Assembly: GCA_013359225.1 (NCBI GenBank) | Contig: JABWCG010000004.1 | Location: forward strand, 1,550-65,549 | Direction of reading: 5' to 3' | DNA: 64,000 nt | Source: Candidatus Buchananbacteria bacterium | GTDB lineage: Bacteria > Patescibacteriota > Patescibacteriia > Buchananbacterales > UBA6539 | Shown: one piece after another, positions 6,007 through 43,843 of the stretch | Layout of the letters: each line of letters opens with the position of its first letter | Numbering within the stretch: the first letter of the stretch is position 1 | The notes under the pieces: generated by a model | What the model saw: only the letters and a program-made list of their open reading frames with translations | Told to the model about the DNA's origin: nothing | Databases searched by the model: none | Program-made: the position numbers and the translations under genes

Positions 6007-6366
6007 TTACTGAGCGCCGGTGGCCACAATCAACTGAGTAATGACGAAGCTGGCGATGGCGTACGAAACGAAGATGATAACCAAACCGATAATACCGGCG
6101 GTAATAATCTTTTTAGCCTGACCAACTTTTTCTTCGTTACCGGCTGAAGTCAACCAGACGAAACCTCCATACAGAATAATAACGATTGCAATAATACCTA
6201 AGAATCCGAGCAAGACGTTGATGATAGCCATGATACCTTCGCGCAAGTCTTTTGTTCCAAGACCGGTGTAGGTGCCGTATTCCAAGCCGACATTTAATGC
6301 CAATGCTGGAGTAACTGTCAAAGCAAACATCAAAACTGTCAAAGCAATTAATAAAACTTTTTTCAT
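6007..6366 (-). CDS. TrbC/VirB2-like pilin-family small secreted protein (paralog A, inverted copy)
   Basis: Start at MKKVLL preceded by AAAGGGGGTGAGAA RBS; signal peptide; LLGFLGI...YGGFVWLTSAGNEEKVGQAKKII...AYAIASFV two-TM C-terminal module; about 78% identical to the copy at 18352..18711 including the upstream RBS region. Confidence 0.6.
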   Translation of the reverse strand: MKKVLLIALTVLMFALTVTPALALNVGLEYGTYTGLGTKDLREGIMAIINVLLGFLGIIAIVIILYGGFVWLTSAGNEEKVGQAKKIITAGIIGLVIIFVSYAIASFVITQLIVATGAQ

Positions 6367-6528
6367 ATTCTCACCCCCTTTCATGACTAATTTATTTAAA
6401 AATACCTTAGATATACTATACCATAAAACAACCTTAGACACCAAATTATTTACAAATGTCAACACTAAATGCTAAAATTAAACCACGAAAAACACTATTA
6501 ATAAAGATAAACGAAACCAAAAACAAAC

Positions 6529-8745
6529 ATGCGACATCATTATCCAACAACTATTCTAAAATTAAGCCTGGCCACCGTGGCTTTTTTCATCTTGGGCGGG
6601 GTTACAGCCCAAGCCAGGACGTTTGATCCAAGCAACATTATCACCGACGATGATTTGATTAACAAAAGTGCGCTGTCAAAAACTGCCATACAAAAATTTT
6701 TGGAGCGCGAAAATAGCGTTTTATCGCGCTACAGCCAAATTGTTAACGGTCAAACGCTTAAAGCGTCAGAAATCATCTGGCAAATCAGTCAAAATCACAC
6801 TATCAATCCAAAATTCCTTTTGACGACACTTGAAAAGGAACAAGCATTAGTCAGTAAAACACAGGCCACGGAAAAAGCGCTGGACTGGGCAACCGGTTAC
6901 AGCTGCTACGGCGGCGGGTGCAATGAAAAGCACCGGGGGTTTTACAACCAAGTTGATGCCGCGGCTGAAACTCAACAAATCTACTGGCAGAAAGCGGGGC
7001 AGTTTAATTTTAAAGTCGGACAAACCACTAAAAGTTTTGACGGCTACCCCGTTACGCCGGCCAATCAGGCAACGGCTAATTTGTATATCTACACTCCGTA
7101 TGTCGGCTATTCGCCGGAACTGGGTGTCACGGCGCCGTATGGTGGCAACCGGCTCTTCTGGCGAATTTGGAACCGTTACTTTACCGACCAAAAATTCTTA
7201 GACGGTCAAATTTTAACTGACGGTTCATCATATTGGTTAATTGAAAAAAATCAAAAACGAAAGTTTGCTTCAAAAGAAATTTTCTTCCAAGACCACACCA
7301 GTGACCAGGCAATCCGAGTTGGCTCGACGGATCTTGCGGCTTATCCTGATGGCCCGGCCGTTAGTTTTGCCAACAACACACTGGTAAAGTCAGATGCTTC
7401 GGGGCAAATTTATCTGCTGTCTGATGGCACTAAGCGGGCCATCGTCGACAATGCCGCCCTGGCTTTACTAAACGACTTTCGCATTGCTATAAGTGAAAAT
7501 GAAATTCCAACCGTTTCTGAGCGGCAGCTTGATAACTACCCACTAGGAAGTTTAATTTTTAGCACTTCGGTGTACCCACAGGGTAAATTGTTCAAGGACG
7601 AAACCGGAACAATTTGGCAGGTAAAAGATGGTTTAAAACACTTTGTTGACACACCGGTCTGGCAAAATCGTTTTGATTCCGAAGCCCCAGAAGACACTAC
7701 TGCTTCAACGCTAGAAAAATACCCGACTGGCGCACCAGTCAAACTTAAAGACGGCACGTTTACCCTCAGTACTAATACCGGCATCTACTACCTGATTTCA
7801 GACGGCGCGCGCATGAAAATTGAAGACTTAACAATTTTTGATCGTATTTTTGGGCCCGAAAAAAAGAACAGCGCCCTGCGCGTTTCAACCGAGCTACTTG
7901 AAGCTCACGACGCCGGTGAAGTAATCGACTATGTTGATGACACCGTTAAAGACACTGATGTACCAAACTCTGGGCCCACGCCCCCAGCCCCTGCCGGCGC
8001 TTATGCCGGAACGTTTGCCACCATGCTGCCCGAAGGGTTAATTATGATGACCGGACAAAAACAAACAGTTACGGTTACCTTCAAAAATACCGGTTCAACC
8101 CCCTGGCAACAAGGCAATGTGTGGCTTCAGGTTACTGATAAGGATAAAACCAGCTCAACGTTTGGTGTTGTCAACAAAATTGACTTTGCCGAAAACTCTG
8201 TTTCAACTAGTCAGCTAGCAACATTTACGTTTGAATTAGCTGCCCCGACTGAACAAAGCGGATTATTAAGCCAGGAATTTGGTATCTACTACAGCAAAAA
8301 TGGCGTGCCAACCAAAATTGCTTCTATTGGCAAATTCGTGATTGTAAAGCCGGGTGCGGCGGCGCAAATTGTTGAACATAACATCCCAGTTGCTGTCCGT
8401 AATACTTGGCGGCCGATTCAAATTACCATGAAAATCCAAAACAACAGCACCGACATCACTTGGTTAGCTAGAAAAACAGCTCTTGAAATTACCAACGACG
8501 ACGGTTCAACTAGTTATTTTCATGACCCTAATGACTGGATCAACAAAACTACCGCGGCAGCGGCCGTCAATAAAACATATATCAAACCTGGTGAAATCGG
8601 GGAATTTAAATTCACCCTTGACCCGCGCGGTATTAAGCGCGGAAACTATATCCTGAAATTCGGGCTCAAATTACTTGATCAAAATGGCAAAGAAATTTTC
8701 TTAAATGGCGAGCAAAACTGGAGACGAGAAATTAGAGTTGATTAA
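6529..8745 (+). CDS. large secreted protein (738 aa), unknown function; possible cell-wall/adhesion-related
   Basis: N-terminal signal peptide, no TM elsewhere, Gly/Thr-rich segments. Confidence 0.45.
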   Translation: MRHHYPTTILKLSLATVAFFILGGVTAQARTFDPSNIITDDDLINKSALSKTAIQKFLERENSVLSRYSQIVNGQTLKASEIIWQISQNHTINPKFLLTTLEKEQALVSKTQATEKALDWATGYSCYGGGCNEKHRGFYNQVDAAAETQQIYWQKAGQFNFKVGQTTKSFDGYPVTPANQATANLYIYTPYVGYSPELGVTAPYGGNRLFWRIWNRYFTDQKFLDGQILTDGSSYWLIEKNQKRKFASKEIFFQDHTSDQAIRVGSTDLAAYPDGPAVSFANNTLVKSDASGQIYLLSDGTKRAIVDNAALALLNDFRIAISENEIPTVSERQLDNYPLGSLIFSTSVYPQGKLFKDETGTIWQVKDGLKHFVDTPVWQNRFDSEAPEDTTASTLEKYPTGAPVKLKDGTFTLSTNTGIYYLISDGARMKIEDLTIFDRIFGPEKKNSALRVSTELLEAHDAGEVIDYVDDTVKDTDVPNSGPTPPAPAGAYAGTFATMLPEGLIMMTGQKQTVTVTFKNTGSTPWQQGNVWLQVTDKDKTSSTFGVVNKIDFAENSVSTSQLATFTFELAAPTEQSGLLSQEFGIYYSKNGVPTKIASIGKFVIVKPGAAAQIVEHNIPVAVRNTWRPIQITMKIQNNSTDITWLARKTALEITNDDGSTSYFHDPNDWINKTTAAAAVNKTYIKPGEIGEFKFTLDPRGIKRGNYILKFGLKLLDQNGKEIFLNGEQNWRREIRVD

Positions 8746-14457: not shown

Positions 14458-15195
14458 TTAACGACTACCAATAATTAACGCACCCGAAACCCCATTAACG
14501 GTAAAATCAATTTTTTTAAAATAAATTCGGCGTCCAGTTTCTCTAATCAACGCCCTAACTTTTGAGACAGCTGGCAACCTGACCGCCAAACTAACATACG
14601 GAGGTTTTTGCGACGAACCATACAGTTCGTTGCCGCGAATATCAGCAATGCGGCGCGGATAGGTATCCAGTGCCAACAAATTCTGGCCATACCGTGCCGG
14701 GCAATAGTTTCGAAAGGGTCGATAATACGGGGCTTCATATTTTTCCCACATTTTAATTAGCTGAGTCGGCGTATGCAAATTCCCTCGACAATTTAAAGCG
14801 CCGCAGCGACAAATGTGCTCCCGGCACTCCCCCGCCCGACATAACAAAACATCATACAAATAGTTAACGGTCAACTCTTCGCCCGGAAAAATTCGTCTCA
14901 GGGCAAAATAAATCACGTGACCCCGATACGAATGCATAGCGCAATTCGGGGCACACGCGTGATTAATTAAATGAATGCCAATTTGTTTTGGGTCGGGCAG
15001 CACAATCAATTTGTCGGTGCAGTGCATGGCGTAAAAACTTTTTTCGTTTTCTTGCCCTTCGCGCTGTTCAGAAATGACCGTGCCCAAATAATCACCGATC
15101 ACCGTACCGGGGTTAATTTCTTTTTTAGCAAAAACCCCACGGCCCTTACCTTTAATTTTTTTGACCTGCCAATAATCGGCAGAAAGTAAAAACAT
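14458..15195 (-). CDS. SET-domain protein-lysine methyltransferase with post-SET Cys cluster
   Basis: GRGVFA...GTVIGDY.G, NHACAPNC, ELTVNY and post-SET CRCGALNCRG motifs. The tool ORF extends 5' through the tRNA genes (AEWFKA/AEWSKAP are tRNA read-through), so trimmed to ATG at 15195. Confidence 0.6.
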   Translation of the reverse strand: MFLLSADYWQVKKIKGKGRGVFAKKEINPGTVIGDYLGTVISEQREGQENEKSFYAMHCTDKLIVLPDPKQIGIHLINHACAPNCAMHSYRGHVIYFALRRIFPGEELTVNYLYDVLLCRAGECREHICRCGALNCRGNLHTPTQLIKMWEKYEAPYYRPFRNYCPARYGQNLLALDTYPRRIADIRGNELYGSSQKPPYVSLAVRLPAVSKVRALIRETGRRIYFKKIDFTVNGVSGALIIGSR

Positions 15196-15207
15196 ATAGT
15201 TTAATGC

Positions 15208-15426
15208 TGGCGGAGAGGACAGGATTTGAACCTGCGAGGACTTGCGCCCATCCCGTCGTTCACGAACGACTGGACGAGATCCCACATTAATCGGAAGGGG
15301 CGAGATTCGAACTCGCGAGACCGTTGCCGGTCTACCGCTTTTCGAGAGCGGCGCTTTCGACCACTCAGCCACCCTTCCGATTAATGTGGGACAAGCCGTC
15401 GCCTTAAACCACTCGGCCACCTCTCC
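15208..15426 (-). tRNA. split tRNA-Ser-like gene: 5' half (acceptor GGAGAGG plus Ser-type D-arm, 15379..15426) and 3' half (variable hairpins plus T-arm plus CCTCTCC-G-CCA, 15208..15291) separated by the complete tRNA-Ser(CGA) and its perfect 14-bp inverted-repeat flanks
   Basis: Only two D-arms and two T-arms are present in 219 nt. The outer acceptor strands are perfectly complementary and CCA is encoded. No canonical anticodon arm could be folded for the outer molecule. Confidence 0.35.
15292..15378 (-). tRNA. tRNA-Ser (anticodon CGA), class II with long variable arm; no encoded CCA
   Basis: GGAAGGG acceptor/CCCTTCC, D-arm GCTGAGTGGTCGAAAGC, anticodon stem CCGCU/AGCGG with loop CUCGAAA, variable arm, T-arm GCGAGTTCGAATCTCGC, discriminator G; folded by hand. 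Confidence 0.7.
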
Positions 15427-15456
15427 ATTGCTTATTATTAACACATTTAATCAGTT

Positions 15457-15485
15457 TTTACAATTTAGCGTTTTTTTGTTATAAT
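15457..15485 (+). promoter_or_regulatory. sigma70-like promoter (TTTACA-17-TATAAT) for galU
   Basis: Hexamers with 17-nt spacer located 24 nt upstream of the galU ATG, in the divergent tRNA/galU intergenic region. Confidence 0.45.
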
Positions 15486-15508
15486 TTAAAACAGAATTGT
15501 TAAAAAAT

Positions 15509-16375
15509 ATGTCAAAAATTAGAAAAGTTGTTATCCCGGTTGCCGGCCTTGGCACTCGCTTCCTGCCCGCAACCAAAGCCCAGCCGAAAGAAATGTTACC
15601 GGTGGTTGATAAACCAATCATCCAATACATTGTCGAAGAGGCGGTCGCGGCCGGCATTACTGACGTAATTTTAGTAACCGGCTCAACCAAACGCGCGATT
15701 GAAGACCATTTTGATCGCAATGAAAACCTGGAAAACCATCTTAAAAAAAATGGCAAATCTAAATACTACCAGGCTGTCAAAGAGGTTGCTGAACTGGCAA
15801 ACTTTATTTTTATTCGACAAAAAGGGCCCTATGGCAACGGCACACCGGTACTTAATACTAAAGCAGTGATCGGCGATGAGCCATTTGCCGTCGTGTGGGG
15901 AGATGATATTTGGGATTGCCCAAGCCGGCCCCACATTAAACAGCTTATTGATGTTTATGAAAAATATGGCGACCCGGTAATCACCGCTTATAAGACCGAC
16001 GCCGAAGGCACATCAAAATACGGCATTATTGAGGGCACGGAAGTTGAACCAAACGTCTATCAGGTCAAATCAATCGCCGAAAAACCAGGTCCTCAAAAAG
16101 CTAAAAGCCGCATCGCTTCATTTGGCGGCTACATTTTTACGCCAGACATTTTTAATGAGCTGGAAAAAACCCCTCTGGGCAAAGGCGGCGAGCTGTGGCT
16201 GGTTGATGCAATTGCCCGACTACTCAAAAAACGCCCGATTTACGCGAAGATTATCGATGGCCAGCTCTACGACACCGGCTCAAAGCTTGGTTGGTTGAAA
16301 GCGAATGTTGAGTTTGGTCTCAAAGACAAAGAAATCAATAAAGAATTCAAAAACTTTTTGAAACATAAGCTATGA
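15509..16375 (+). CDS. galU: UTP--glucose-1-phosphate uridylyltransferase
   Basis: N-terminal KIRKVVIPVAGLGTRFLPATKAQPKEMLPVVDKP signature; start at ATG 15509 (the tool ORF starts at an upstream TTG). Confidence 0.8.
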   Translation: MSKIRKVVIPVAGLGTRFLPATKAQPKEMLPVVDKPIIQYIVEEAVAAGITDVILVTGSTKRAIEDHFDRNENLENHLKKNGKSKYYQAVKEVAELANFIFIRQKGPYGNGTPVLNTKAVIGDEPFAVVWGDDIWDCPSRPHIKQLIDVYEKYGDPVITAYKTDAEGTSKYGIIEGTEVEPNVYQVKSIAEKPGPQKAKSRIASFGGYIFTPDIFNELEKTPLGKGGELWLVDAIARLLKKRPIYAKIIDGQLYDTGSKLGWLKANVEFGLKDKEINKEFKNFLKHKL

Positions 16376-17754
16376 AAATAAAAACGAAACTTTATCTTTT
16401 AATTTTATTAGCCGTGGTGGCGGTTTCTTCCGGATTCAGCTGTAAATTTATTACGCCGTCGCAAAAGGAGTTGCTAGAACCGATTGAATTAACTTGGTGG
16501 GGTGTTACTGATGAGCCGGAAAATTTCTACGAGGTCATCGGCGATTACCAGGCCGCACACCCAAACATTAAAATTACTTACCGAAAATTACGCCTAGAAG
16601 AGTTCGAAAATGAGTTGCTGGAGGCCTTGGCCGAAGACCGCGGTCCGGATATTTTTTCCATTCATAACACCTGGGTAAATAAATATTTATCAAAAATTGA
16701 ACCCCTGCCGGCCAAAACCACCCTGGCATATCAAGTTACAAAAACCAGCCTCGGCATCAAACAAGAAACACTCATTGAAGTCCGAGACGTTCCGGCCATT
16801 ACCGCACCACAACTCAAAGAAACATTCTTAGACGTTGTCTATAATGATGTTGTGCGCGACAACAAAATTTACGGCCTGCCGCTGAGCGTTGATACGTTAG
16901 TCCTATTTTATAATCGTGACCTGCTCAATAATGCCGGCATTCCTCTGCCGCCCAAGACCTGGAATGAATTGCAAGAACAAGTTAAACGCTTGACCTTCCA
17001 AAATCAAAACGGCGACCTCATCCAATCCGGTGCTGCTCTGGGAACTGCCGAAAATATTGAGCGCAGTTCTGATATTGTTTCGCTGTTGATGATGCAAAAC
17101 GGTGCGGAAATGATTACCGGCCGAAACGTCACGTTTGGTGTTGTTCCATCCACATTCCCCGACCAAACCTATAATCCAGGTCCTGAGGCAGTCCGCTTTT
17201 ACACCGACTTTGCCAACAGTAGTAAAGAAGTATATTCATGGAATAAAACTTTTTCCAACTCCATTGACGCCTTTGCCGAAGGAAGAGTTGCCATGATCTT
17301 TGGTTATAACTATCACATCCCTATTTTAGAATCCAAACGCCAGGGCAAGCTAAACTATGGTATTAGTAATATGCCGCAAATTGAGGGCCGGACCGAAGTC
17401 AACTTTGCCAACTACTGGGTTAACACCGTTTCCAAAAAAAGCGCTCACATTAATGAAGCGTGGGATTTTATTCAATTCATAACAACTAAAAAAGCGGAAA
17501 CTGAAAAGTACCTAGCCAAAACCCTCCGGCCTACGGCACTACGAACACTGATTCAAGATCAAACCAACAACGATGCGTTAGCAGTATTTGCCAAGCAGCT
17601 TCTCACCGCTAAAAGCTGGTACCGCGGCGCTGACGCCGTGGCAGCGGAAAATGCTTTAAACGAAATGATTGAATCAATTTTAGCCGGTAACGATCTGCAA
17701 GAATCGGTAAATTTAGCCGCTCTAAAAATTCAACAAACACTTCAAACGCTATGA
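16372..17754 (+). CDS. extracellular solute-binding lipoprotein (ABC transporter substrate-binding protein, sugar family)
   Basis: Signal peptide with lipobox-like GFSC, 460 aa SBP-like; overlaps galU stop by 4 nt. Confidence 0.55.
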   Translation: MKIKTKLYLLILLAVVAVSSGFSCKFITPSQKELLEPIELTWWGVTDEPENFYEVIGDYQAAHPNIKITYRKLRLEEFENELLEALAEDRGPDIFSIHNTWVNKYLSKIEPLPAKTTLAYQVTKTSLGIKQETLIEVRDVPAITAPQLKETFLDVVYNDVVRDNKIYGLPLSVDTLVLFYNRDLLNNAGIPLPPKTWNELQEQVKRLTFQNQNGDLIQSGAALGTAENIERSSDIVSLLMMQNGAEMITGRNVTFGVVPSTFPDQTYNPGPEAVRFYTDFANSSKEVYSWNKTFSNSIDAFAEGRVAMIFGYNYHIPILESKRQGKLNYGISNMPQIEGRTEVNFANYWVNTVSKKSAHINEAWDFIQFITTKKAETEKYLAKTLRPTALRTLIQDQTNNDALAVFAKQLLTAKSWYRGADAVAAENALNEMIESILAGNDLQESVNLAALKIQQTLQTL

Positions 17755-18218
17755 AAAAAATTATTATAATATTTTTACTGGCTATCCTCGGATTGACCCT
17801 GGGCAGCCCTGCCTTAGCCCAAGAAAATAAAAAACCTTGGGTTGAAGAAATTTTAGGCGGTCCGCTGATTCCCTCCGGGTGCACCGAAAGCCAAGCTAAT
17901 GCCGGTTCTAGCCAAGTAACCAAATGCGGCCTTAATGAAATGCTGCAGGTTGGTATTAACTTTTCAAAAATCCTGCTCGCCCTAACCGGCAGCGCTGCTT
18001 TATTGATGTTTGTGTATGGCGGCGCGATGTTTATCATGGCGGCCGGCAAACAAGAAATGGTACAAAAAGGTAAAGCGGCGATGACTGCCGCCGTCATCGG
18101 CATTGTTATCATTTTAGGGGCCTATCTAATTGTCAACTTTACCATTCTTGCCCTGACTAAAGGCGAAGTCGGCGGCAATGCCACCATCTTTGGCCAACCT
18201 TTCAATCAAACTCCATAA
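17751..18218 (+). CDS. TrbC/VirB2-like pilin-family protein (paralog B, divergent; two Cys in mature N-region)
   Basis: Signal peptide, then INFSKILLALTGSAALLMFVYGGAMFIMAAGKQEMVQKGKAAMTAAVIGIVIILGAYLIV two-TM module; start overlaps SBP gene by 4 nt. Confidence 0.5.
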   Translation: MKKIIIIFLLAILGLTLGSPALAQENKKPWVEEILGGPLIPSGCTESQANAGSSQVTKCGLNEMLQVGINFSKILLALTGSAALLMFVYGGAMFIMAAGKQEMVQKGKAAMTAAVIGIVIILGAYLIVNFTILALTKGEVGGNATIFGQPFNQTP

Positions 18219-18351
18219 GATTGCCGCTAAAACATCTGGGGTTTTCATTGACACTAGCAACCAGTATTTATTATAATTTAGATAAGGTTATTTAAAATTA
18301 AGGCTGCAAGCGAAAGCAACACAGCTTCCAACCGTGAAAGGGGGTGAGAAA

Positions 18352-18711
18352 ATGAAAAAAATTGCGATTTTAACAACTTTAGGCGTAATCTTTGCCTTGA
18401 GTGCCATGCCAGTTTTGGCGATTGACACCGGCTTAAATTACGGCACTTACACTGGTTTGGGAACAAAGGACTTACGAGAAGGTATCATGAACGTCGTCAA
18501 CGTCTTGCTTGGATTCTTAGGCATTTTAGCAATCATTATTATCCTGTGGGGAGGTTTCCGCTGGCTTACTTCGGGCGGTAACGAAGAAAAAGTTGGTGAA
18601 GCTAAAAAGATTATCACCGCCGGTATTATCGGTTTGGTCATTATCTTTACGGCCTACGCCATCGCCAGCTTCGTCATCGTTCAGTTGATTCAGGCCACTG
18701 GCGCTCAATAA
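18352..18711 (+). CDS. TrbC/VirB2-like pilin-family protein (paralog C; near-identical to inverted copy A)
   Basis: AAAGGGGGTGAGAAAATG RBS-start; LLGFLGILAIIIILWGGFRWLTSGGNEEKVGEAKKIITAGIIGLVIIF...ATGAQ. Confidence 0.6.
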   Translation: MKKIAILTTLGVIFALSAMPVLAIDTGLNYGTYTGLGTKDLREGIMNVVNVLLGFLGILAIIIILWGGFRWLTSGGNEEKVGEAKKIITAGIIGLVIIFTAYAIASFVIVQLIQATGAQ

Positions 18712-18790
18712 TAACTAGTTTGAGTTTCAACGGTTATTAGATACATTCAAGCTGGGGAGACCTTCATAACTTTGGGGGTCTCCCCAATTG

Positions 18791-19207
18791 ATGAAAATTT
18801 ATAAAACCATGAAAATTTTAATTACCACAATCGTTATATTTTCAATCTTATTTTTGGTAGTCGCGCCAGATATACTACTAGCCGCCTGCCAAGGAACTGA
18901 CTGCGTCACCGCCGGACTGGAAGTAACTACCGAAAAAGCCGGGCTTGACACCGGTGCCAACGCCACCAACCTGCCCCGAATCATTGGTCGCGCCATCAAT
19001 GCTCTATTTGGCATTATCGGCGTTATTTTTCTAACCGTCGTCTTAATTGGCGGCTACGAATGGATGACATCCGGCGGCAGTGAAGAAAAAATCGCCAAGG
19101 GCAAAAAATTTATCATCAACGGCATCAACGGCATGATCGTTATTTTTTTGGCCTACGCCTTAGTCTACGTCATAATGTTTTCTCTAAGTCGCGCTACGGG
19201 CAGTTAA
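18791..19207 (+). CDS. TrbC/VirB2-like pilin-family protein (paralog D)
   Basis: Signal/TM, Cys pair in variable region, GGYEWMTSGGSEEKIAKGKKFIINGINGMIVIFLAYAL module. Confidence 0.55.
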   Translation: MKIYKTMKILITTIVIFSILFLVVAPDILLAACQGTDCVTAGLEVTTEKAGLDTGANATNLPRIIGRAINALFGIIGVIFLTVVLIGGYEWMTSGGSEEKIAKGKKFIINGINGMIVIFLAYALVYVIMFSLSRATGS

Positions 19208-19208
19208 C

Positions 19209-19622
19209 ATGAAATTTACTTTTTTACAAAAAAATTTTTTGGTTGTCAGCTTATTGATACTGACGACGTTTTTAATGACAACTCATTTTGTCGCCGCCAG
19301 CACCATGGACCAGGTTAACAGCGGTTTTGCCCAGACTGGTGAAGAAGCAGGCTTTCCAACTCAAGGTGGCAAACCAAAAGTGGAATTTAGTCAGGCTTTT
19401 ATCAACTACGTCAACAGCATGATTGGCCTCATGGGTTTACTGTTTATGGTTTTAGTCATCTACGGCGGTTGGCTTTGGATGTCTGCGCGCGGCAGCGAAG
19501 AACAGGTTACTAAAGCCAAAAAACTTATTATTAACGCGGTCATTGGCTTAGCGGCGGTCATTGGCGCGCGCCTGGTGGTAGAATTAGTTATTATTTATTT
19601 GAGCCGAACTTTTGTCAGTTAA
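19209..19622 (+). CDS. TrbC/VirB2-like pilin-family protein (paralog E)
   Basis: YGGWLWMSARGSEEQVTKAKKLIINAVIGLAAVIGARL module; 1-nt gap after D. Confidence 0.55.
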   Translation: MKFTFLQKNFLVVSLLILTTFLMTTHFVAASTMDQVNSGFAQTGEEAGFPTQGGKPKVEFSQAFINYVNSMIGLMGLLFMVLVIYGGWLWMSARGSEEQVTKAKKLIINAVIGLAAVIGARLVVELVIIYLSRTFVS

Positions 19623-19623
19623 C

Positions 19624-20025
19624 ATGAGTATGTTACAAAAAACTTTTTTTATTGCCCTGGTTCTGACGCTTGTTTTTCACGGTGTCGGGGTATTAGCTGC
19701 CGGCACACCTATTGGCGAACAAATGGGCGGCGGCCTGAACACCGCCATTGACGAAGTTTATGGCAGAGACGTTACGGTTGATCAAACCACATTTAACAGC
19801 GGTTTAATTACAATTATTAACACCCTGCTAACGTTTACCGGCATCATTTTTTTGCTACTGATCATTTATGCCGGGTACTTATGGATGACCGCACGCGGCA
19901 ACGAAGAACAGGTTGACCGGGCAAAAAAAATTACCCGCGAGGTAGTAATTGGTTTACTGCTAATACTGCTGGCCCGAATTATTACTGAATATATTTTGAT
20001 TCAAATTGGCAAAGCCACTAACTAA
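19624..20025 (+). CDS. TrbC/VirB2-like pilin-family protein (paralog F)
   Basis: Start moved to first ATG (MSMLQK) just after E stop; YAGYLWMTARGNEEQVDRAKKITREVVIGLLLILLARII module. Confidence 0.55.
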   Translation: MSMLQKTFFIALVLTLVFHGVGVLAAGTPIGEQMGGGLNTAIDEVYGRDVTVDQTTFNSGLITIINTLLTFTGIIFLLLIIYAGYLWMTARGNEEQVDRAKKITREVVIGLLLILLARIITEYILIQIGKATN

Positions 20026-20030
20026 AAAGT

Positions 20031-20426
20031 ATGAAAACTATTTACACACTCTTATTACTCAGCATCATTACTGCCGCCCTAGCAACACTAACGCCGGTAC
20101 TGGTCCTGGCACAGGGCGGTGATATTACTCAACAAATGCAAAACAGCCTAGCAAACGTCAGCTTGCCAAGCACTAACAAAGACGAGGGTCGGGTTGAAGT
20201 CATTGTCGGGAAAGTAATCGGCGCATTTTTGAGTATTTTTGGTATTATTTTCATGGTATTAATTATTTTTGGCGGCTATAAATGGATGATGGCTTCCGGC
20301 CGTGAAGAAGAAATTTCCAAGGCCAAAGCTACGATTCGCTCAGCGGTTATCGGCTTAATTATTGTTTTAGCGGCCTACGCTATCACCTTCTTTATTACTA
20401 ATGCTCTACAACAAGCCGTTGGCTAA
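20031..20426 (+). CDS. TrbC/VirB2-like pilin-family protein (paralog G)
   Basis: FGGYKWMMASGREEEISKAKATIRSAVIGLIIVLAAYAITFF module. Confidence 0.55.
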   Translation: MKTIYTLLLLSIITAALATLTPVLVLAQGGDITQQMQNSLANVSLPSTNKDEGRVEVIVGKVIGAFLSIFGIIFMVLIIFGGYKWMMASGREEEISKAKATIRSAVIGLIIVLAAYAITFFITNALQQAVG

Positions 20427-20431
20427 AATGT

Positions 20432-20848
20432 ATGAATGACACACTTAAAAAAGCGACAATTTTTTTCACCGTTATTGCGCTGCTTCTGGCCTTAAACATT
20501 GGATCGGTTTTAGCCCAAGGCACGCTTGACTTGACCGGTAAACTGAAAAACGTCGGCGGTAACGCTGGCTATTCCGCCGAGGTAACTGAAAACACGCTTC
20601 CTAACACCGTCGGAAATATTATCAAGGCCCTGCTATCCCTTTTGGGTATTATTTTTATGTCTTACATTGTGTACGCAGGATATCTCTGGATGACCGCGGC
20701 TGGCAACGATGAAAAAATCACCAAAGCTAAAGCGATTCTTCGCGGCAGCATTATCGGCTTAATTATTGTTTTAGCGGCCTACGCTATCACTCAATTTGTG
20801 CTCGTTTCAATAACTGAGGCAACCGGGTATAGCTCCGCAGGAAGCTAA
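20432..20848 (+). CDS. TrbC/VirB2-like pilin-family protein (paralog H)
   Basis: YAGYLWMTAAGNDEKITKAKAILRGSIIGLIIVLAAYAITQF module. Confidence 0.55.
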   Translation: MNDTLKKATIFFTVIALLLALNIGSVLAQGTLDLTGKLKNVGGNAGYSAEVTENTLPNTVGNIIKALLSLLGIIFMSYIVYAGYLWMTAAGNDEKITKAKAILRGSIIGLIIVLAAYAITQFVLVSITEATGYSSAGS

Positions 20849-20862
20849 TAAACTTCAACTTT

Positions 20863-21303
20863 ATGTTTAGTAAACTTTACCGCTCAATTATTCTGACCCT
20901 TTTGCTACTAGCCGTCGTTGGCATCACGTTCTCATTTGGTGCTATAGACACCAATGCCCAGGAAGGGTTAAGTCTTGATGAAATGACCAAACAAGCGGCC
21001 GGCGCTGCGGGCTACAGCGAAGAAACCAACGAAACCACGTTTGCCAAAATTGTTGGTACGGTAGTTCGGGTATTTCTTTCGTTGCTCGGTGTCATTTTTA
21101 TCTCTTACACTGTATATGGCGGGTTCTTATGGATGACCGCGGCTGGCAACGATGAAAAAATCACCAAAGCAAAGCACATTATCCGCGACGGCATTATCGG
21201 CTTAATCGTCATTCTGTCAGCAGCCGGCATCTACTACTTTATAGCCGAGTTTTTAATTGACACCTCTGGCACTTCCGGCGGCACTATTCCTGGCGGAGGT
21301 TAA
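20863..21303 (+). CDS. TrbC/VirB2-like pilin-family protein (paralog I, Gly-rich C-terminal tail)
   Basis: YGGFLWMTAAGNDEKITKAKHIIRDGIIGLIVILSAAGIYYF module; ends GTSGGTIPGGG. Confidence 0.55.
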   Translation: MFSKLYRSIILTLLLLAVVGITFSFGAIDTNAQEGLSLDEMTKQAAGAAGYSEETNETTFAKIVGTVVRVFLSLLGVIFISYTVYGGFLWMTAAGNDEKITKAKHIIRDGIIGLIVILSAAGIYYFIAEFLIDTSGTSGGTIPGGG

Positions 21304-21314
21304 AAGACAAATCT

Positions 21315-21734
21315 ATGAATAAAAAAATAAAATTTTTACTGACCTTTCTGCTGCTACTAGGCATTTTAACCCTGAACGTGACGCCGGTTTTGGCGCAAGG
21401 CCTCCAGGACCCGGCTAAACAAAAACTTGATGCTCAAAACGAAGCTTTTTTGGCTGAAACCGGACTTGGAACTCAGACGAGTTTGTCACTGATGGTAAGC
21501 GCCATCATCCGAGTATTTCTGTCTTTTCTGGGAGTAATCTTTGTTGTTTTAATTATCTACGCCGGTTTTATGTGGATGACGTCAGCCGGCAATGAAGATA
21601 AAATCAGCAAGGCCAAAAAAATTATGGCTTCCGCCATTATTGGTTTAGCAATCGTACTGGCGGCATACGCCATCACCTACTTTGTACTTGATCAGCTACT
21701 TGAAGCAACTAAGGGCGGCCAAGGACTCGACTAA
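21315..21734 (+). CDS. TrbC/VirB2-like pilin-family protein (paralog J)
   Basis: YAGFMWMTSAGNEDKISKAKKIMASAIIGLAIVLAAYAITYF module. Confidence 0.55.
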   Translation: MNKKIKFLLTFLLLLGILTLNVTPVLAQGLQDPAKQKLDAQNEAFLAETGLGTQTSLSLMVSAIIRVFLSFLGVIFVVLIIYAGFMWMTSAGNEDKISKAKKIMASAIIGLAIVLAAYAITYFVLDQLLEATKGGQGLD

Positions 21735-21755
21735 TCAATCTTGATAAAATAAATA

Positions 21756-21805
21756 GAGGGTGCACTATTTTTTCCGTTCTGGAAAAGTGCACCCTCTTTG
21801 AAAAA
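21756..21805. terminator. bidirectional terminator hairpin (agagggtgcact ... agtgcaccctct)
   Basis: 12-bp perfect inverted repeat with internal sub-hairpin, flanked by A/T runs, between convergent pilin J and the GC-rich lipoprotein gene. Confidence 0.5.
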
Positions 21806-21825
21806 ACAAAGGCTCGCTAGGCTCG

Positions 21826-22404
21826 CTAGGGAGCGACGATTGACCAGTCGCAGGTAAAACCCTCAACTTGGTTATCCGCTTCCACGGTGTCGATATCGCG
21901 CCAACCTCGCAGATAAGCGCTGCTTGATCCGGCGCGATAGAGTTGCACGTAGTACCGATCAGCCGGCAAAAACGTCCACTCTTTAGCACCAGGACCAATG
22001 GTTCGAACCAGCGCGAACTGGCCATAACTGACCTCAAACCGTACTGGCCGGCTTGAAGCGTTATAAAGGACCCCCCGATAGAACTTAAAGGGTCCTCGCG
22101 GCAATGTCGCTGACGGATCAGCATTCAAATCTGGCAAAGCCTTCCAGTAGCTTTCGCCCTGAAGCTCCCAGAATTGCCGCACCGCTTCGTCGCGGTTGGC
22201 GCGCGCCTTCATCCAAGCCTCGACGAAATTCTGGTTGGAGTCGGTATAATGCTCTACTCCTCCCACGTGCAGCTCAGCAGCCTGATAGCCGACCCAATAC
22301 TTGCTGTCTGCGTTCTGCTTTGCCACCAAGGCCGCTCGACCAGTTGGCGTCACGGTACTGCAACCAACCGCCAGCAGCAACACTATTGCACAAATCTGTT
22401 TCAT
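21826..22404 (-). CDS. lipoprotein of unknown function, GC-rich (about 58% GC), probably horizontally acquired
   Basis: Lipobox LLLAVGC; strong AGGAG RBS at 10-nt spacing; composition contrasts with flanking pilin genes; 2x9-bp tandem repeat ggctcgcta at the 3' end. Confidence 0.5.
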   Translation of the reverse strand: MKQICAIVLLLAVGCSTVTPTGRAALVAKQNADSKYWVGYQAAELHVGGVEHYTDSNQNFVEAWMKARANRDEAVRQFWELQGESYWKALPDLNADPSATLPRGPFKFYRGVLYNASSRPVRFEVSYGQFALVRTIGPGAKEWTFLPADRYYVQLYRAGSSSAYLRGWRDIDTVEADNQVEGFTCDWSIVAP

Positions 22405-22570
22405 CGTAAAACCGCTCCTCTTGGTTATCGGCCGCTAGGCCTAATTTTTCAATTCAAAGGGCACTAAAGAACTTTGAATATTAACATAAATTAGCAAATT
22501 TGTCAATAAATATTCCCCTAAAAACAGATAAAATGGTATAATTACCTTACTTAACTTTTAAAATACCTGT

Positions 22571-22990
22571 ATGACCAAAACAGCTTACCTATTTTTACAT
22601 GCCCTAATGGTTTTTACGCTCTTGCTCAGCCTAGTACCGGTTAATGCTCTGGCAGTTAGTGGCGACATTACTGATTTAATGAAAGATCAGCTCGAACCAA
22701 TTGAAGAAGTCTATGATCCGCGCGACGACGTTACCCCATCAACTTTTTCTAAAAACGTTGCTCAAATGATTAATGTCGTGCTTGGATTTCTAGGAATTGT
22801 TTTCCTCATTTTAATCCTCTACGCTGGCTGGATGTGGATGACGTCAGCCGGCAATGAAGATAAAATCAGCAAAGCCAAAAAAACAATGGTTGCCGCCATT
22901 ATCGGAGTGGCGATCATTTTAGCAGCGTACGCCATCTCCTACTTTGTTATTAATCAATTATTGATTGCTACCAAGGGCGAAGGATTATAA
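22571..22990 (+). CDS. TrbC/VirB2-like pilin-family protein (paralog K; closest to J)
   Basis: YAGWMWMTSAGNEDKISKAKKTMVAAIIGVAIILAAYAISYF module. Confidence 0.55.
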   Translation: MTKTAYLFLHALMVFTLLLSLVPVNALAVSGDITDLMKDQLEPIEEVYDPRDDVTPSTFSKNVAQMINVVLGFLGIVFLILILYAGWMWMTSAGNEDKISKAKKTMVAAIIGVAIILAAYAISYFVINQLLIATKGEGL

Positions 22991-23065: not shown

Positions 23066-24997
23066 ATGAAGCCGTCTGTAATCCAATCATGGATCACCAC
23101 CCACAACCGGCAAATTCTTTTTGCGGCAATCGCGCTATATAGCGGATTATTTTCGCTAATCGCTATCTGGAAATACCACAACTTCTACTATACTGCCATT
23201 GATCTGGCAATTTTTAATCAAACTTTTTTCAACTCGCTTTTGGGAAACTGGTTTGGGCTAACCATTCATCCGCCAAGCTACCTAGGCGATCATTTTTCAC
23301 CATTACTCATACTATTACTACCGTTTTATGCCCTGACCAAAAATCCGGAAAGTTTGCTGATACTGCTGGCAACAATCAACGGCCTAAGTGCTTGGCCACT
23401 ATATCTGATTGCCAAAAAAGCGCTGGGTGCTAAACTGGCGCTGCCAGTTGCCCTGGCCTGGTTGCTAAACCCGGTAGTACAAAACACCACGCTGTTTGAA
23501 TTTAATTTTTTGTCGTTTGCCGTGTTCTTTTTGTTCTGGGCGTTTTATAGCTACCAAAGAAAAAAATTCCTGCCGGCAGTCCTCTTTTTACTATTGGCGA
23601 TGCTTGCCCGCGAAGACGTTAGTCTAGTAGTCTTAATGTTTGGCATTGTTGCTTTAGGTCAAAAAAAATCATGGCGTTGGGTTGTTACGCCGTTGATTAT
23701 GGGTTTGGTCTATTTTAGCGCCGCAGTTTTTGTAATAAAAGTCTTCGCCCCGGCCGATGAATATAAATTTTTTATCTACTACCCCTGGATTAATCACCTA
23801 ACAACCCAGCCATGGCTACCGATTATTTATCTGCTACGACCCAATAACATTATCTACCTTATCGGTCTTGGGTTAACGGTAGTTTTTTTACCATTAATAA
23901 GCCCGCTCTTTTTATTACTTGGTGCCATTATAGCGCTACAACTCCTGCTTGGCGGGTCGGGTGGCGGACAACTCCTGCTGGAAACCCACTACTCCAGCCT
24001 GTTATTGCCAGCACTATTTATCGCCTCAATTTATGGCTTAAAAAAAATTTTTGACCCAAACCAGAAACCAACCATTATTAAGCTTGTCAACCAACACCGT
24101 GCACTACTTACTACACTCTTAGTCTTTGGCGTTTTCTATGCTAGCGTAACACTGGGCCCGGCCTCCGGCATTTGGCAGCACCGACACCGAACCGACAACA
24201 GTAAAGCGCGCGCCACCATGCTTCGGCAAATTCCCGACGACCAAGCCGTTGCTAGTAGCTACCAATTTTTACCGACGCTATCCTCGCGAAAAAATATTTA
24301 CTCTTTTAATTATGCCTTTTTAGGCAAGCAGCAATTTTTACGTAGCGACTACAAACTGCCCGAAGACACTACCTGGATCGCTTTAGATTTTTCCGATCTA
24401 ATCACCTACCAAATCCAATACGGCTTCAATCCTTATTACCAAAATCAATACCAGGCCGCGCTTAAAACGTGGCCAAAACTGCTTGATGATTTTGGGCTGG
24501 TGGCCATTACTGATAGCTACGCCCTATACCAACGCAATGCAACTGCAGCCTTTGAACTAGTAAAAATTTTAGACACGCCACCAATTAATGCCAATGCTGT
24601 TTCCCTAACCAACGGGGTGATATTTTTAGGTTACCAAAAAGAAGCCGGACAATATCAACTACTTTGGCAACTCATGCTGCCGCAAGAAATACCTTATCGC
24701 ATACGCCTAGAATTGATTAAAGACGGTAAAACCGTATACCAAAAACTGTATCCCTTTGGATATGATTTATTACTAAACGCACCAGCGGGGCCAGCAAATG
24801 TCCAAACTAATTATTGGTTTAACCCCGACCATCGCGTAGCTCCCGGAACATATGACCTAAAGCTGACGCTGGTCAAGATAATTGATGGCGGTATTGAGGT
24901 TGATGAAATTCGGTCCACTAAAAATGTGATTGATCAGGAAGAAATTATAGGCGAAATATTAAAAACAAAATTTATTGTACCACTTGATACACTGTAA
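23066..24997 (+). CDS. large polytopic membrane protein with C-terminal extracytoplasmic domain (GT-C-fold glycosyltransferase-like)
   Basis: 643 aa, N-terminal roughly 330 aa multi-TM, C-terminal soluble domain; context of GT2/GT-C cluster. Confidence 0.35.
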   Translation: MKPSVIQSWITTHNRQILFAAIALYSGLFSLIAIWKYHNFYYTAIDLAIFNQTFFNSLLGNWFGLTIHPPSYLGDHFSPLLILLLPFYALTKNPESLLILLATINGLSAWPLYLIAKKALGAKLALPVALAWLLNPVVQNTTLFEFNFLSFAVFFLFWAFYSYQRKKFLPAVLFLLLAMLAREDVSLVVLMFGIVALGQKKSWRWVVTPLIMGLVYFSAAVFVIKVFAPADEYKFFIYYPWINHLTTQPWLPIIYLLRPNNIIYLIGLGLTVVFLPLISPLFLLLGAIIALQLLLGGSGGGQLLLETHYSSLLLPALFIASIYGLKKIFDPNQKPTIIKLVNQHRALLTTLLVFGVFYASVTLGPASGIWQHRHRTDNSKARATMLRQIPDDQAVASSYQFLPTLSSRKNIYSFNYAFLGKQQFLRSDYKLPEDTTWIALDFSDLITYQIQYGFNPYYQNQYQAALKTWPKLLDDFGLVAITDSYALYQRNATAAFELVKILDTPPINANAVSLTNGVIFLGYQKEAGQYQLLWQLMLPQEIPYRIRLELIKDGKTVYQKLYPFGYDLLLNAPAGPANVQTNYWFNPDHRVAPGTYDLKLTLVKIIDGGIEVDEIRSTKNVIDQEEIIGEILKTKFIVPLDTL

Positions 24998-26639
24998 CGC
25001 CCTGAGACGAAAACACTTCGTGCAAATACTTATGAAGGGCCGGGTTAAAGCTACCCAGCTCTTTTTCGTAATCACTGTATATGAGGTATGAGATATTATT
25101 AGCCAACAAAAACTCATGCTTTTTATCGGCATAGTCGTTGTCTAAGAAAAACCACTGAATATAGGCTGCCTTGGAGCCAAAAAATAGCGTTTCGTGAGCA
25201 TGGGCCGCATATACCGCATGCCCGGAAAATCCTGGCGCAAATTTAAGCGGAATATCAGCGCCAAACACCACTCCGGCCCGAGACTGCTGGGTCGCCAGCC
25301 AAGCATAGGCGTCAAATAAACCATTGGGCAAAAACAGTTTGGTGGTAATAGCAGGACTGTTGCTGAAAATAAAATAAAAATCGCGGCCAACACTATACAA
25401 ATTTGACGGCATCAGCCAAATCACAAACAACAAAATCAGTAGCACGCTATTATTAATCCAGAAATCATACGTTGCCGGCTTGAGCCGAGTTCGCAGATAT
25501 GCCCCCAATTCGCTTAGACCAATAACCGTAAAAATCACTAAAATAATATGTAGACCCTGCGTATAGCGGCTATGGAAAGGAAACGGCGAATAAATCAAAA
25601 CAATATCAACAATAAACCACGAAAGCAACAACCAGTGACGGCGATCAAACTTTTTTTGGTGCCACAAAAACCATAAGCCCAAAATAAACCCCAGCCACAA
25701 CAGACCGTAACCTAATACCACAAAAATAAAAGGTGAGATATTAGTGACATTTTGAATCGCCCGCTGACCAATCACCGGACTAGCGCCAATCAGCCAAAAA
25801 TGATAAATCACCGACGGTAATGATATTAAAAATACCACTATTAAATAGCCGGCTTCACGCCATAAAAATCGATTAGCCCGCAGCATTAAACCAAACAAAT
25901 AAAGCCCTAAAACACCAAAAATAACCGGAAAATAATATGGGTGAAAATTAAAATAACACAAAGCCAAAACACCACTTACAGCCGCATATACCATTTTTCT
26001 CCTACTTTCAAACGCTAGCGCCATCAGTAAAAAAATAAGAATCATCAGCGTAATTGAGGCGATAAAATGCGACGTTTGATAAAGCGTGTTAAAAGTATTT
26101 GCCTCAGTTAACCATAAATCAATTGGCCAGCGGTAGGGGTCGGGTCCTTCAATGCCCAGCGCGTCAATTGGTGCGGCAACATAAAAACCAAGGCCGCTAG
26201 AAAAAAGTAAAAAGATAAGTGCGGTTAGTCGCACCGCGCGGTCGGAAAAAAAGTAAGCGATAAAAATATAAGCTACTGTTAAAAAAACAGGAATCATAAT
26301 CAGCCGCGAAAGTTGAAACGCTAAAATAACCGGCAGATTAAATATGCCCGCCAACTGCCCAATCCAAGCCCACCATATATTCAAGGTTCCGAATGCTTGC
26401 GGTTCAGGAGTTAATAAGTTTTTTACGAATATTTCGCCGCTACGGGCCTGATTGATATATGAATAATAAACAGGAATATCTCCGGGACTTAACGCGTGCA
26501 AACCATTATAGGTAAAACCATTAGGTGCAAAAAAATACCCCGCCAAATATGGCAGGCCGGTAATAATAATCATCACTAGCGCCAACAACCAAACCAAGCG
26601 CCATTCTTGTTGACTGATAGTGGCTAAAATTTTTTTCAT
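24972..26639 (-). CDS. GT-C-like polytopic membrane protein (tandem paralog 1 of 2)
   Basis: 555 aa, more than 12 TM, shares N-terminal EWRLV...YYSYINQA(R/K)SG(E/K)I motif with the next gene. Confidence 0.4.
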   Translation of the reverse strand: MKKILATISQQEWRLVWLLALVMIIITGLPYLAGYFFAPNGFTYNGLHALSPGDIPVYYSYINQARSGEIFVKNLLTPEPQAFGTLNIWWAWIGQLAGIFNLPVILAFQLSRLIMIPVFLTVAYIFIAYFFSDRAVRLTALIFLLFSSGLGFYVAAPIDALGIEGPDPYRWPIDLWLTEANTFNTLYQTSHFIASITLMILIFLLMALAFESRRKMVYAAVSGVLALCYFNFHPYYFPVIFGVLGLYLFGLMLRANRFLWREAGYLIVVFLISLPSVIYHFWLIGASPVIGQRAIQNVTNISPFIFVVLGYGLLWLGFILGLWFLWHQKKFDRRHWLLLSWFIVDIVLIYSPFPFHSRYTQGLHIILVIFTVIGLSELGAYLRTRLKPATYDFWINNSVLLILLFVIWLMPSNLYSVGRDFYFIFSNSPAITTKLFLPNGLFDAYAWLATQQSRAGVVFGADIPLKFAPGFSGHAVYAAHAHETLFFGSKAAYIQWFFLDNDYADKKHEFLLANNISYLIYSDYEKELGSFNPALHKYLHEVFSSQGVTVYQVVQ

Positions 26640-28970: not shown

Positions 28971-28974
28971 ACCC

Positions 28975-29685: not shown

Positions 29686-29687
29686 AT

Positions 29688-43701: not shown

Positions 43702-43839
43702 ATGCCAAAAAGAACCTATCAACCAAAAAATCGAAAGGCTAAGAAGAAGCACGGTTTTCGATCCAGGATGAGCAGTCCGGGTGGTAAGAATGTGCTAAAA
43801 AGCCGACGAGACAAAAAGAGAAAAAGAATTTCTCTTTAG
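43702..43839 (+). CDS. rpmH: 50S ribosomal protein L34
   Basis: [23 protein letters not shown]...; 45 aa, below the cut-off of the supplied ORF track. Confidence 0.85.
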
Positions 43840-43843
43840 GTTT

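Follow-up and report, generated by a model that had tools for sequence, protein, structure and literature searches.

A complete tRNA-Ser gene nested in the remains of a resident tRNA-Ser gene of Candidatus Buchananbacteria, and similar loci in other genomes

The nested tRNA-Ser locus

A transfer RNA (tRNA) locus was analyzed at positions 15208-15426, minus strand, of a 64,000-nt stretch of contig JABWCG010000004.1 (Candidatus Buchananbacteria bacterium, assembly GCA_013359225.1); the whole stretch is referred to as the window. One detectable tRNA gene, a tRNA-Ser(CGA) at 15378..15292, lies between the two halves of a second tRNA-Ser (15426..15208), and the insert which contains it comprises 145 nt (15395-15251) in the anticodon arm of the outer gene. 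This nested layout, first described in the original prediction from the letters alone, is genuine; all the elements listed there are present on the minus strand, and are given in their order in Table 1. The covariance-model and ARAGORN searches found one tRNA only. The same layout was recovered from a second assembly of the locus (L001, Logan SRR20608312) with a single substitution, which turns a G-U pair of the outer variable arm into G-C. Since the two data sets agree, the layout is not an assembly artefact of one of them.

The outer acceptor stem is formed by GGAGAGG (15426-15420) and CCTCTCC (15218-15212), which pair at 7 of 7 positions and are followed by G and CCA (15211-15208); as had been stated, CCA is encoded for the outer molecule and not for the inner one. 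The 14-nt inverted repeat CCCACATTAATCGG / CCGATTAATGTGGG (15390-15377 and 15294-15281) is exact, its last two bases being the first two pairs of the inner acceptor stem. No further copy of it was found in the 64 kb, where 0.5 matches would be expected even with two mismatches. Folding of the 219-nt transcript with RNAfold gave a stable structure (-111 kcal/mol; z = -6.7 against shuffled sequences), predicted to consist of the outer acceptor stem, an uninterrupted 21-bp helix and two hairpins downstream of it. Of its 21 bp, 13 come from the flank and 7 from the inner acceptor stem, the remaining one being a G-U pair. An extension of the inner acceptor helix had been anticipated correctly, while its length, put at about 19 bp, is 20-21 bp in this fold. 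The ends of the cassette in the window read TCCCA.../...TGGGA.

Table 1. Features of the nested tRNA-Ser locus and its immediate flanks, in minus-strand order (window coordinates)
Feature	Position	Strand	Remarks
Promoter-like site (TTGTAA, 18 nt, AATAAT)	15434..15463	minus	Sole such site found for the nest; 8 nt upstream of the outer 5' end
Outer 5' fragment, GGAGAGGTGGCCGAGTGGTTTAAGGCGACGG (31 nt)	15396..15426	minus	Acceptor strand, Ser-type D arm, first 4 nt of the anticodon stem
Left junction tetranucleotide, CTTG	15392..15395	minus	The intact allele has TCTCG at the same place
Left cassette arm, TCCCACATTAATC	15379..15391	minus	Pairs with G73 and the right arm; continues the inner acceptor stem
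Inner tRNA-Ser(CGA), 87 nt	15292..15378	minus	Long variable arm, G73, no encoded CCA
Right cassette arm, ATTAATGTGGGA	15280..15291	minus	From fold, inverted-repeat search and covariation
TCTCG	15275..15279	minus	Equals resident anticodon-arm positions 31-35 (L272: ACGGTCTCGAAC); second copy of the 5' part of the anticodon loop
Second hairpin unit, TCC-A-GTCGTT-CGTG-AACGAC-G-GGA (TCCAGTCGTTCGTGAACGACGGGA)	15251..15274	minus	From RNAfold; family-typical TCC...GGA ends
Outer 3' fragment, TGGGCGCAAGTCCTCGCAGGTTCAAATCCTGTCCTCTCCGCCA (43 nt)	15208..15250	minus	Variable arm, T arm, acceptor strand, G73, CCA
SET-domain gene	14458..15195	minus	Start 13 nt past the outer CCA; same 13-nt spacing in L272

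The resident gene and its substitute

At a related locus (L272), where the SET-domain protein is 72% identical to that of the window, the same promoter motif is followed by one intact tRNA-Ser(CGA), 13 nt and the SET gene. The outer 5' fragment of the window is identical to this tRNA at 31 of 31 positions and the outer 3' fragment at 42 of 43 (43 of 43 in L001); the sole difference, GUCC against GCCC, falls in the variable arm, where L001 has the L272 base. Single intact tRNAs of the outer type were also found beside galU in L002 and L004 (GalU 92% and 86% identical, respectively). Since the outer halves match the L272 tRNA at the same locus, the outer molecule is the resident gene. The original prediction was to count as refuted if relatives had a single intact tRNA-Ser and the flanks were unrelated degraded sequence. 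This refutation does not apply: such an intact gene exists but matches the flanks of the inner tRNA, which are thus not unrelated sequence.

Where L272 has the segment TCTCGAACACCGTT, the window has CTTG, the cassette, TCTCG and the hairpin, and 9 nt of anticodon loop and stem, AACACCGTT, which are due before the outer 3' fragment, are missing. Apart from the inner tRNA, nothing tRNA-like was detected by Rfam at E<=10 in the region 14900-15800, and ARAGORN recognized no tRNA-Ser in four defined excision constructs, the L272 control being recognized. These constructs replaced an exhaustive in-silico joining of outer 5' and 3' parts, which was dropped because ARAGORN proved too permissive and called arbitrary anticodons. 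The loss of AACACCGTT and the failure of the constructs mark the outer gene as a dead relic, in keeping with the earlier suspicion that it might be a pseudogene. The outer molecule is thereby shown to be the tRNA-Ser(CGA) gene native to this chromosome, split at the DNA level and dead.

One alternative would grant the outer parts a function of their own: after release of the inner tRNA, the two pieces could stay paired through their arms and acceptor stem as an anticodon-less, tRNA-like molecule chargeable by seryl-tRNA synthetase. This enzyme reads the variable arm and the acceptor end, not the anticodon. Nothing is damaged in the outer acceptor stem (7/7), the D, variable and T arms, G73 or CCA, and the sole polymorphism between the window and L001 is the change from G-U to G-C in the outer variable arm. 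This intactness is explained, however, by a recent event, the outer parts being identical to the functional allele, and most related loci (described below) show outer deletions, hairpin insertions in the D or T loop, or halves which do not match. The decay there gives no sign of long-term selection on the outer parts, and a two-piece molecule is considered highly improbable.

The inner gene was called Ser(CGA) by ARAGORN and matched the full Rfam model RF00005 with 60 bits at 15378-15292 (gathering threshold 29 bits). Its serine identity elements include a 16-nt variable-arm insert in the covariance-model alignment and the discriminator G at 15292. It is identical to the resident allele of L272 at 61 of 87 positions (70%), and 85-86% identical to the inner tRNAs of nested loci L154 and L010 (Kerfeldbacteria), which belong to other Patescibacteria. 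With only 70% identity to the outer gene it is not a local copy; these comparisons show it to be a foreign, complete type II tRNA-Ser(CGA), and it is presumably the functional gene of the locus. A separate lineage of cassette-borne tRNAs was considered and rejected, inner and outer 5' parts being drawn from one pool (identity 0.78, 0.77 and 0.77).

We therefore think it probable that a replacement took place at the DNA level, in which a palindromic cassette with a foreign tRNA split the resident gene and took over its function.

Related loci in genomes and metagenomes

Related loci were collected by a scan for two Ser-type D arms 15-45 nt apart, with nothing else required. It yielded 56 stretches from GTDB representative genomes and 114 from metagenomes, which make up 108 distinct loci. 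The energy of pairing between leader and trailer of the complete tRNA was bimodal across these loci and divides them into two classes. The strong-helix class (27 loci at <= -15 kcal/mol, plus weaker cases) has the anatomy of the window; its labels are Kerfeldbacteria, Saccharibacteria, Peribacteria, Parcubacteria and Patescibacteria, the labelled loci being mostly Patescibacteria. All 27 inserts are compact and measure about 115-200 nt.

The termini in this class are conserved. Typical cassettes have the ends TCCCG...CGGGA, and the helix always abuts the inner acceptor stem. About 15 of the strong-helix loci have CTTG, CTCG or TTTG at the end of the relic 5' part, with an insert that starts with TCCCG (or TCACCG, TCCTA); of 16 TCCCG-type cassettes about 15 stand behind one of these tetranucleotides, and the similar hairpins in the T loops of dead copies stand behind GTTC (5/5). 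Six loci (L010, L012, L019, L055, L067, L169) have the order stem, CTYG / TC...GGGA / AAA, stem, with the stems complementary at 5 of 5 positions. The insert in these six lies exactly between G35 and A36 of a tRNA-Ser(YGA), and its removal restores a 7-nt loop with no duplication and no loss. A tandem second unit, TCCCGnC-loop-GnCGGGA, is common (L024, L012, L010, L067, L005) and resembles the second hairpin of the window, while the order hairpin / NCTCG / hairpin seen in the window recurs in L176, L080 and L040. The hairpins of L005, L010 and L023 which resemble cassette ends lie inside the tRNA relic region. A generic scan for GC-rich hairpins was dominated by noise and was discarded, as was a regular-expression search for target-plus-hairpin units, which gave mostly chance matches outside tRNA relics.

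Of the 15 loci which could be scored by eye, 13 have the same anticodon in the inner and the outer tRNA, as expected if only those cassettes survive which replace the lost function. Nests may be deeper than that of the window. In L143 (8100-8560, minus strand) a three-deep nest was found with two dead outer genes, each split by hairpin units; only the innermost tRNA (8392..8306) passes Rfam, and hairpins follow GTTC in both relic T loops.

The relatives also bear on a reading at the RNA level, put forward in the original prediction as a tRNA gene with an intervening sequence that itself encodes a tRNA. The 145 nt would be removed by RNase P/Z, RNase III or another endonuclease and the outer halves ligated into a functional tRNA-Ser, which implies a joining of exons such as ...GACGGCUUG to UGGGCGCAAG.... 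Precise removal would restore a complete outer tRNA in L055 and L067, and in the window the outer molecule has kept its acceptor, D, variable and T arms undamaged. Against this, the window is without the 3' anticodon-stem strand and three loop nt, so that its exons do not rejoin into a tRNA in any splice product, and a matching outer 3' acceptor strand beside a perfect T arm is kept in only 11 of 36 related loci, while in the others it has decayed, does not match or was not seen in the sequence available. In the window region Rfam detected no family of introns or ribozymes (E<=10), and 20 related loci gave only tRNA matches at the gathering thresholds. The -1 base of the 5' junction is G, whereas group I introns require U. 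No bulge-helix-bulge was seen in the predicted fold, where the 21-bp helix runs uninterrupted from the junction, although this was by inspection and with no dedicated detector. Removal of the insert from the transcript is thus judged very unlikely.

The larger class, of at least 60 loci, mainly from Proteobacteria, has no helix. A 5' tRNA-Ser fragment, reaching to or just past the anticodon loop, stands 8-20 nt upstream of a complete tRNA-Ser(UGA), and many of these loci have a conserved ...AAAAACAAGCACTTA... just after CCA. In both of the no-helix loci which were checked, L034 (1950-2110) and L022 (1602-1760), restriction-modification genes lie directly downstream. This class looks like ordinary island biology, with islands that bring a whole replacement tRNA.

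An origin of this sort could be supposed for the window as well, namely that the nest is the scar of an integrase-borne island or prophage which entered the anticodon loop of the tRNA-Ser, brought a tRNA copy and later lost nearly all its cargo. Elements regularly integrate at tRNA genes, where displaced fragments are often found (PMC4383910, PMC9897764), the no-helix loci show a 5' tRNA-Ser fragment directly upstream of a complete tRNA-Ser, and a large serine recombinase gene adjoins the intact tRNA in L004. However, the junctions CTYG/TCCCG and CGGGA/AAA of the strong-helix class share no core, so that neither the 2-nt overlap of a serine recombinase nor the 6-8-nt overlap of a tyrosine recombinase should be able to yield them. 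The insert is uniformly compact in the 27 loci, and not variably deleted, with conserved termini and a helix that always abuts the acceptor stem. No integrase is encoded in the 145-nt insert, no transposase- or recombinase-family domain was found in the 50 window open reading frames (ORFs) scanned (of 60 of >= 90 amino acids, aa), and no transposase or integrase was recurrent among 146 ORFs flanking 37 related loci. An island scar is accordingly rated as unlikely. Of the three readings first proposed, integration nevertheless came closest: the outer halves are indeed the resident gene, interrupted at the DNA level.

Three loci of the D-arm scan (L015, L048, L058) are plain tandem duplications which include the upstream flank, and a local rearrangement or duplication with no mobile element, or an assembly artefact, might be invoked for the window on that model. 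The inner gene is too distant from the outer one for this (70% identity), two independent assemblies agree, and the same type of junction occurs in 27 loci; an explanation of this kind is scarcely credible.

Among viral contigs, the D-arm scan found one phage tRNA array with a fragment unrelated to the cassettes. In this array (L007:4380-4480, on a 152-kb IMG/VR contig) a Ser-type 5' fragment is followed 20 nt on by a Ser-like 5' part that breaks off after CTTGA; the phage tRNA-Ser may contain an intron or be fragmented, and appears unrelated to the cassette family. A palindrome with arms of about 23 bp, GTAGGGGCGGGCTTGTCCCGCCC...GGGCGGGACAAGCCCGCCCCTAC, is repeated in L012 (1080, 2342, 5581, 5620, 6877) and L024 (2133, 7640) and contains CTTGTCCCGCC and the CTTG/TCCCGCC junction of the tRNA inserts. 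L012 is labelled Gammaproteobacteria, yet it has this repeat and its cassette arms in common with the Patescibacteria contig L024.

Other filled states of the galU-linked locus

The locus beside galU is filled in different ways in other relatives. L269 and L270 (GalU 87%) contain a different inner tRNA and the same outer 3' relic, with GC-rich hairpins inside the relic acceptor and D loop. In L269 (1270-1345, minus strand) these are CCTGCCTGCCGGCAGGCAGG and TCCCGCCAGAGGCGGG, which interrupt the dead outer 5' fragment in its acceptor strand and its D loop; they follow GAG rather than CTYG, so the target of the hairpins is not strict. In L005/L006 (GalU 82%) and L023 (79%) the inner tRNA has GGAGGGG, its arms TCCCGCTCAAAAC and TCCCGCATAAAAC are homologous to those of the window, and downstream of it lie several 3' relics, of which some contain two-hairpin inserts in their anticodon or T loop. 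The variable arm TCCCGCAAGGGATC of L004, L005 and L023 was considered as the source of the TCCCGC/GCGGGA ends and rejected, since other lineages share the ends despite unrelated variable arms.

In L004 (78-1589) the gene directly downstream of the intact tRNA-Ser(CGA) encodes a large serine recombinase with Resolvase, Recombinase and Zn_ribbon_recom domains, which suggests that the galU-linked locus is also used by conventional integrating elements.

The acceptor-continuing helix

Leader and trailer were aligned without gaps for the 27 strong-helix loci (each side comprising an acceptor strand and the 16 nt of leader or trailer next to it). In these loci, which had been selected on pairing energy, the 20-bp helix was 92.8% paired, against 35-49% with the partners slid. 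Changes on both sides were found in 17 of the 20 pairs, and the pair C(-1):G73 was invariant. Between the window and the L023 arm (TCCCGCATAAAAC) there are three differences, each fully compensated in the opposite arm. The helix is absent from 9 of 11 non-nested type II tRNAs of the same loci, three intact alleles (L272, L002, L004) included. The earlier idea of a pre-tRNA processing cassette may hold for this 20-bp leader-trailer helix.

Genomic setting

No promoter-like site was found between the outer and inner 5' ends. A AAATTGTAAAAA...TAATAAT motif likewise precedes the tRNA in L002, L004, L272, L269 and L023. No terminator-like site was found between the outer CCA and the SET start codon, and the tRNA nest and the SET gene are therefore probably co-transcribed. 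The SET-domain protein is 100% identical to one which NCBI names from a Candidatus Buchananbacteria metagenome-assembled genome, and the nearest GalU homologues bear Patescibacteria names.

The AT-rich island next to the locus had been taken to make integration plausible. This link was not borne out: the neighbours are ordinary genes for a subtilase, a BsuPI-domain protein, a DUF6076 protein and the SET-domain protein, and the ORFs scanned in the window had no recombinase-family domain. The window represents core chromosome, with dnaA, dnaN, rnpA, yidC, polA, an SMC-family ATPase gene, ruvC and cell-envelope genes. dnaN, dnaA and rnpA are located at 40701-44179 and the minimum of the cumulative GC skew is near 40-42 kb; together these place the replication origin probably within the window, about 27 kb from the tRNA locus. 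With the origin region at about 42-44 kb, the skew suggests that the strand which carries CTTG is the lagging-strand template.

Two mechanical ORFs run across the nested tRNA, 14458-15444 (minus, 328 aa) and 15242-15484 (plus, 80 aa), and a 139-aa gene is likewise called right beside the tRNA in L002; spurious protein calls are likely at such loci. The 139-aa ORF of L002 (1850-2300) is without Pfam match, lies just downstream of the intact tRNA and is bracketed by the 10-nt direct repeat GACCCACATG; neither it nor the adjoining HD-domain gene has a counterpart in the window, of which L002 is the closest relative.

Elsewhere in the window, about ten small paralogous ORFs (125-155 aa) are found at 17751-22987 and 6010-6465. 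The five which were scanned all match T4SS_pilin/TrbC. The array is downstream of galU and a gene for a solute-binding protein, and this gene order is kept in L002, L003 and L005. At 24975-28303 two adjoining 555-aa ORFs without Pfam match stand beside three tandem paralogues of family-2 glycosyltransferases (28278-30398).

Proposed mechanism and its weighing

In the replacement which we consider probable, the core of the insert is the palindromic cassette, made up of a 13-nt arm, the complete foreign tRNA-Ser(CGA) and the complementary arm; TCTCG and the small hairpin come after it. The tRNA would sit in the hairpin loop, its own acceptor stem closing the loop into one uninterrupted stem. From the sequence we infer that the old promoter drives transcription of the inner tRNA, whose leader would be the old 5' half; that RNase P (rnpA is present in the window) would cut the inner 5' end; and that an RNase Z-type enzyme and the CCA-adding enzyme would finish the 3' end, which has no encoded CCA. 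In the RNA, the 20-bp helix might be a stem for processing or insulation; alternatively, it might form a hairpin in single-stranded DNA when the cassette inserts. New cassettes laid over old ones would produce the multi-layer nests. As each insertion destroys the resident gene and supplies a substitute, the cassette would make itself indispensable.

How the cassette entered is a separate matter. Insertion may have followed a duplication-free, hairpin-dependent mechanism on single strands of the HUH, IS91 or IS200 kind, possibly with an HUH-type enzyme acting in trans; this is only a lead, drawn from analogy, and it is weakened by the fact that CTTG, CTCG and GTTC are simply tRNA loop sequences. 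Alternatively, the window may owe its cassette to homologous recombination with an allele that was already nested.

Possible, though on balance doubtful in our view, is the wider proposal that the cassettes are self-propagating tRNA genes, in effect a tRNA "gene drive": a mobile hairpin would enter the anticodon loop of a resident tRNA-Ser precisely, by way of an HUH-like or new enzyme which makes no target duplication, kill the gene and become indispensable, and successive rounds would leave Russian-doll genes across Patescibacteria.

Several observations weigh against these interpretations. The junction in the window is untidy. T31 is missing, C34 is T, and the left side reads ACGG-CTTG and not ACGGTCTCG; a second TCTCG comes after the cassette and 9 nt have gone, and only one of the other 74 relic nt differs from the living allele. 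Such unclean junctions indicate either an imprecise event or an allele imported whole: an imprecise insertion explains them no better and no worse than homologous recombination that brought in an older nested allele, its crossovers falling inside the tRNA halves. Within the 64 kb there is a single copy of the cassette sequence. Hairpins also follow GAG and AGAG (L269) and GGCG (L049), which shows that the target is not strict. A cassette-pattern scan of viral contigs gave 91 matches, none with a flanking helix, and it tells here as well that no transposase or recombinase was found among the scanned ORFs of the window, or recurrently among those flanking the related loci. The pairing statistics come from loci chosen by pairing energy, and covariation in inverted repeats can arise in the absence of selection, through templated correction of quasi-palindromes.

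The usual mobile DNA that targets tRNA genes brings a partial tRNA copy and an integrase; here some 115-200 nt, with a complete tRNA in a hairpin, replace the gene which they destroyed. Provided that the cassettes do move, they would rank as the smallest elements known to ensure their own persistence by replacing a gene. They would also account for the piles of tRNA-Ser fragments in Patescibacteria genomes, and imply an unrecognized, duplication-free insertion activity in a phylum with very few known mobile-element enzymes. For annotation, pipelines detect the innermost tRNA only and may call spurious ORFs over the relics, as with the 328-aa ORF mentioned above. The relic layers record past tRNA alleles and have a potential use in strain-level history.

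Comparison with known systems

The available literature on nested tRNAs, on bulge-helix-bulge introns in Patescibacteria and on mobile tRNA-Ser elements was searched, and no description of the nested layout was found. Among systems that insert into or divide tRNA genes, several share part of its features.

Archaeal split and intron-containing tRNAs (Nanoarchaeum; bulge-helix-bulge introns, some of which encode C/D box RNAs) use a splicing endonuclease route that joins the halves into a working tRNA. Like these and the permuted tRNAs, the nested locus has halves separated at the anticodon region, complementary flanks and an RNA gene inside a tRNA gene. It differs in being bacterial, in having no bulge-helix-bulge by inspection, and in that the outer halves are relics and the inserted gene is the product.

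The helix itself recalls the leader-trailer stems of ribosomal RNA and the ribosomal intervening sequences excised by RNase III, in which a flanking helix of about 20 bp is likewise kept by compensatory changes. To our knowledge, no such stem has been described around a tRNA nested in another tRNA.

Group I introns occur at tRNA position 35/36 in Patescibacteria (Nakagawa et al. 2026, PMC13011429), that is, in the same phylum and at the same unusual site. The insert described here gives no group I match, has G at -1 and is mostly tRNA, and its exons are decayed and form no tRNA.

Miniature inverted-repeat transposable elements (MITEs) and REPINs have terminal inverted repeats and several copies per genome. 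The cassette has the terminal repeats TCCCA.../...TGGGA and is present once in the 64 kb; the palindrome with CTTGTCCCGCC recurs in L012 and L024.

The IS91 family makes no target duplication, uses the targets CTTG, GTTC and (minor) CTCG, and has subterminal palindromes (PMC13181058). Together with the other HUH systems (IS200/IS605, REP/RAYT), it resembles the cassettes in the absence of target duplication at the six precise loci, in hairpin ends and tandem units, and possibly in the placement of inserts after CTTG/CTCG in anticodon loops and GTTC in T loops, which are simply tRNA loop sequences; the window's own junction, being imprecise, is uninformative on duplication. Unlike those elements, the cassettes have as their ends the two arms of one hairpin, not separate ori and ter, and carry the tRNA in the hairpin loop; their target is not strict, as it includes GAG and GGCG, and no HUH transposase was found in the window or in the neighbouring ORFs.

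The closest parallel is with tRNA-targeting islands (Islander type, with tyrosine integrases), which use tRNA genes as integration sites and leave behind dead fragments that pile up (PMC4383910, PMC9897764). There too the target is a tRNA gene, with the anticodon loop as a classical sublocation, and incoming tRNA sequence keeps the function. The nested loci differ in bringing a whole tRNA in place of a partial copy, in the size of the insert (145 nt in the window, with no integrase or cargo), in the absence of a core repeat, in relic halves which directly surround the new gene rather than mark the ends of a kilobase-sized island, and in the helix that continues the acceptor stem. By analogy, and on the sequences compared here, the cassettes would be a functional analogue of the target-restoring tRNA islands, set apart from them by the whole tRNA they carry, their size, their nesting, their helix and their lack of both core repeat and integrase.

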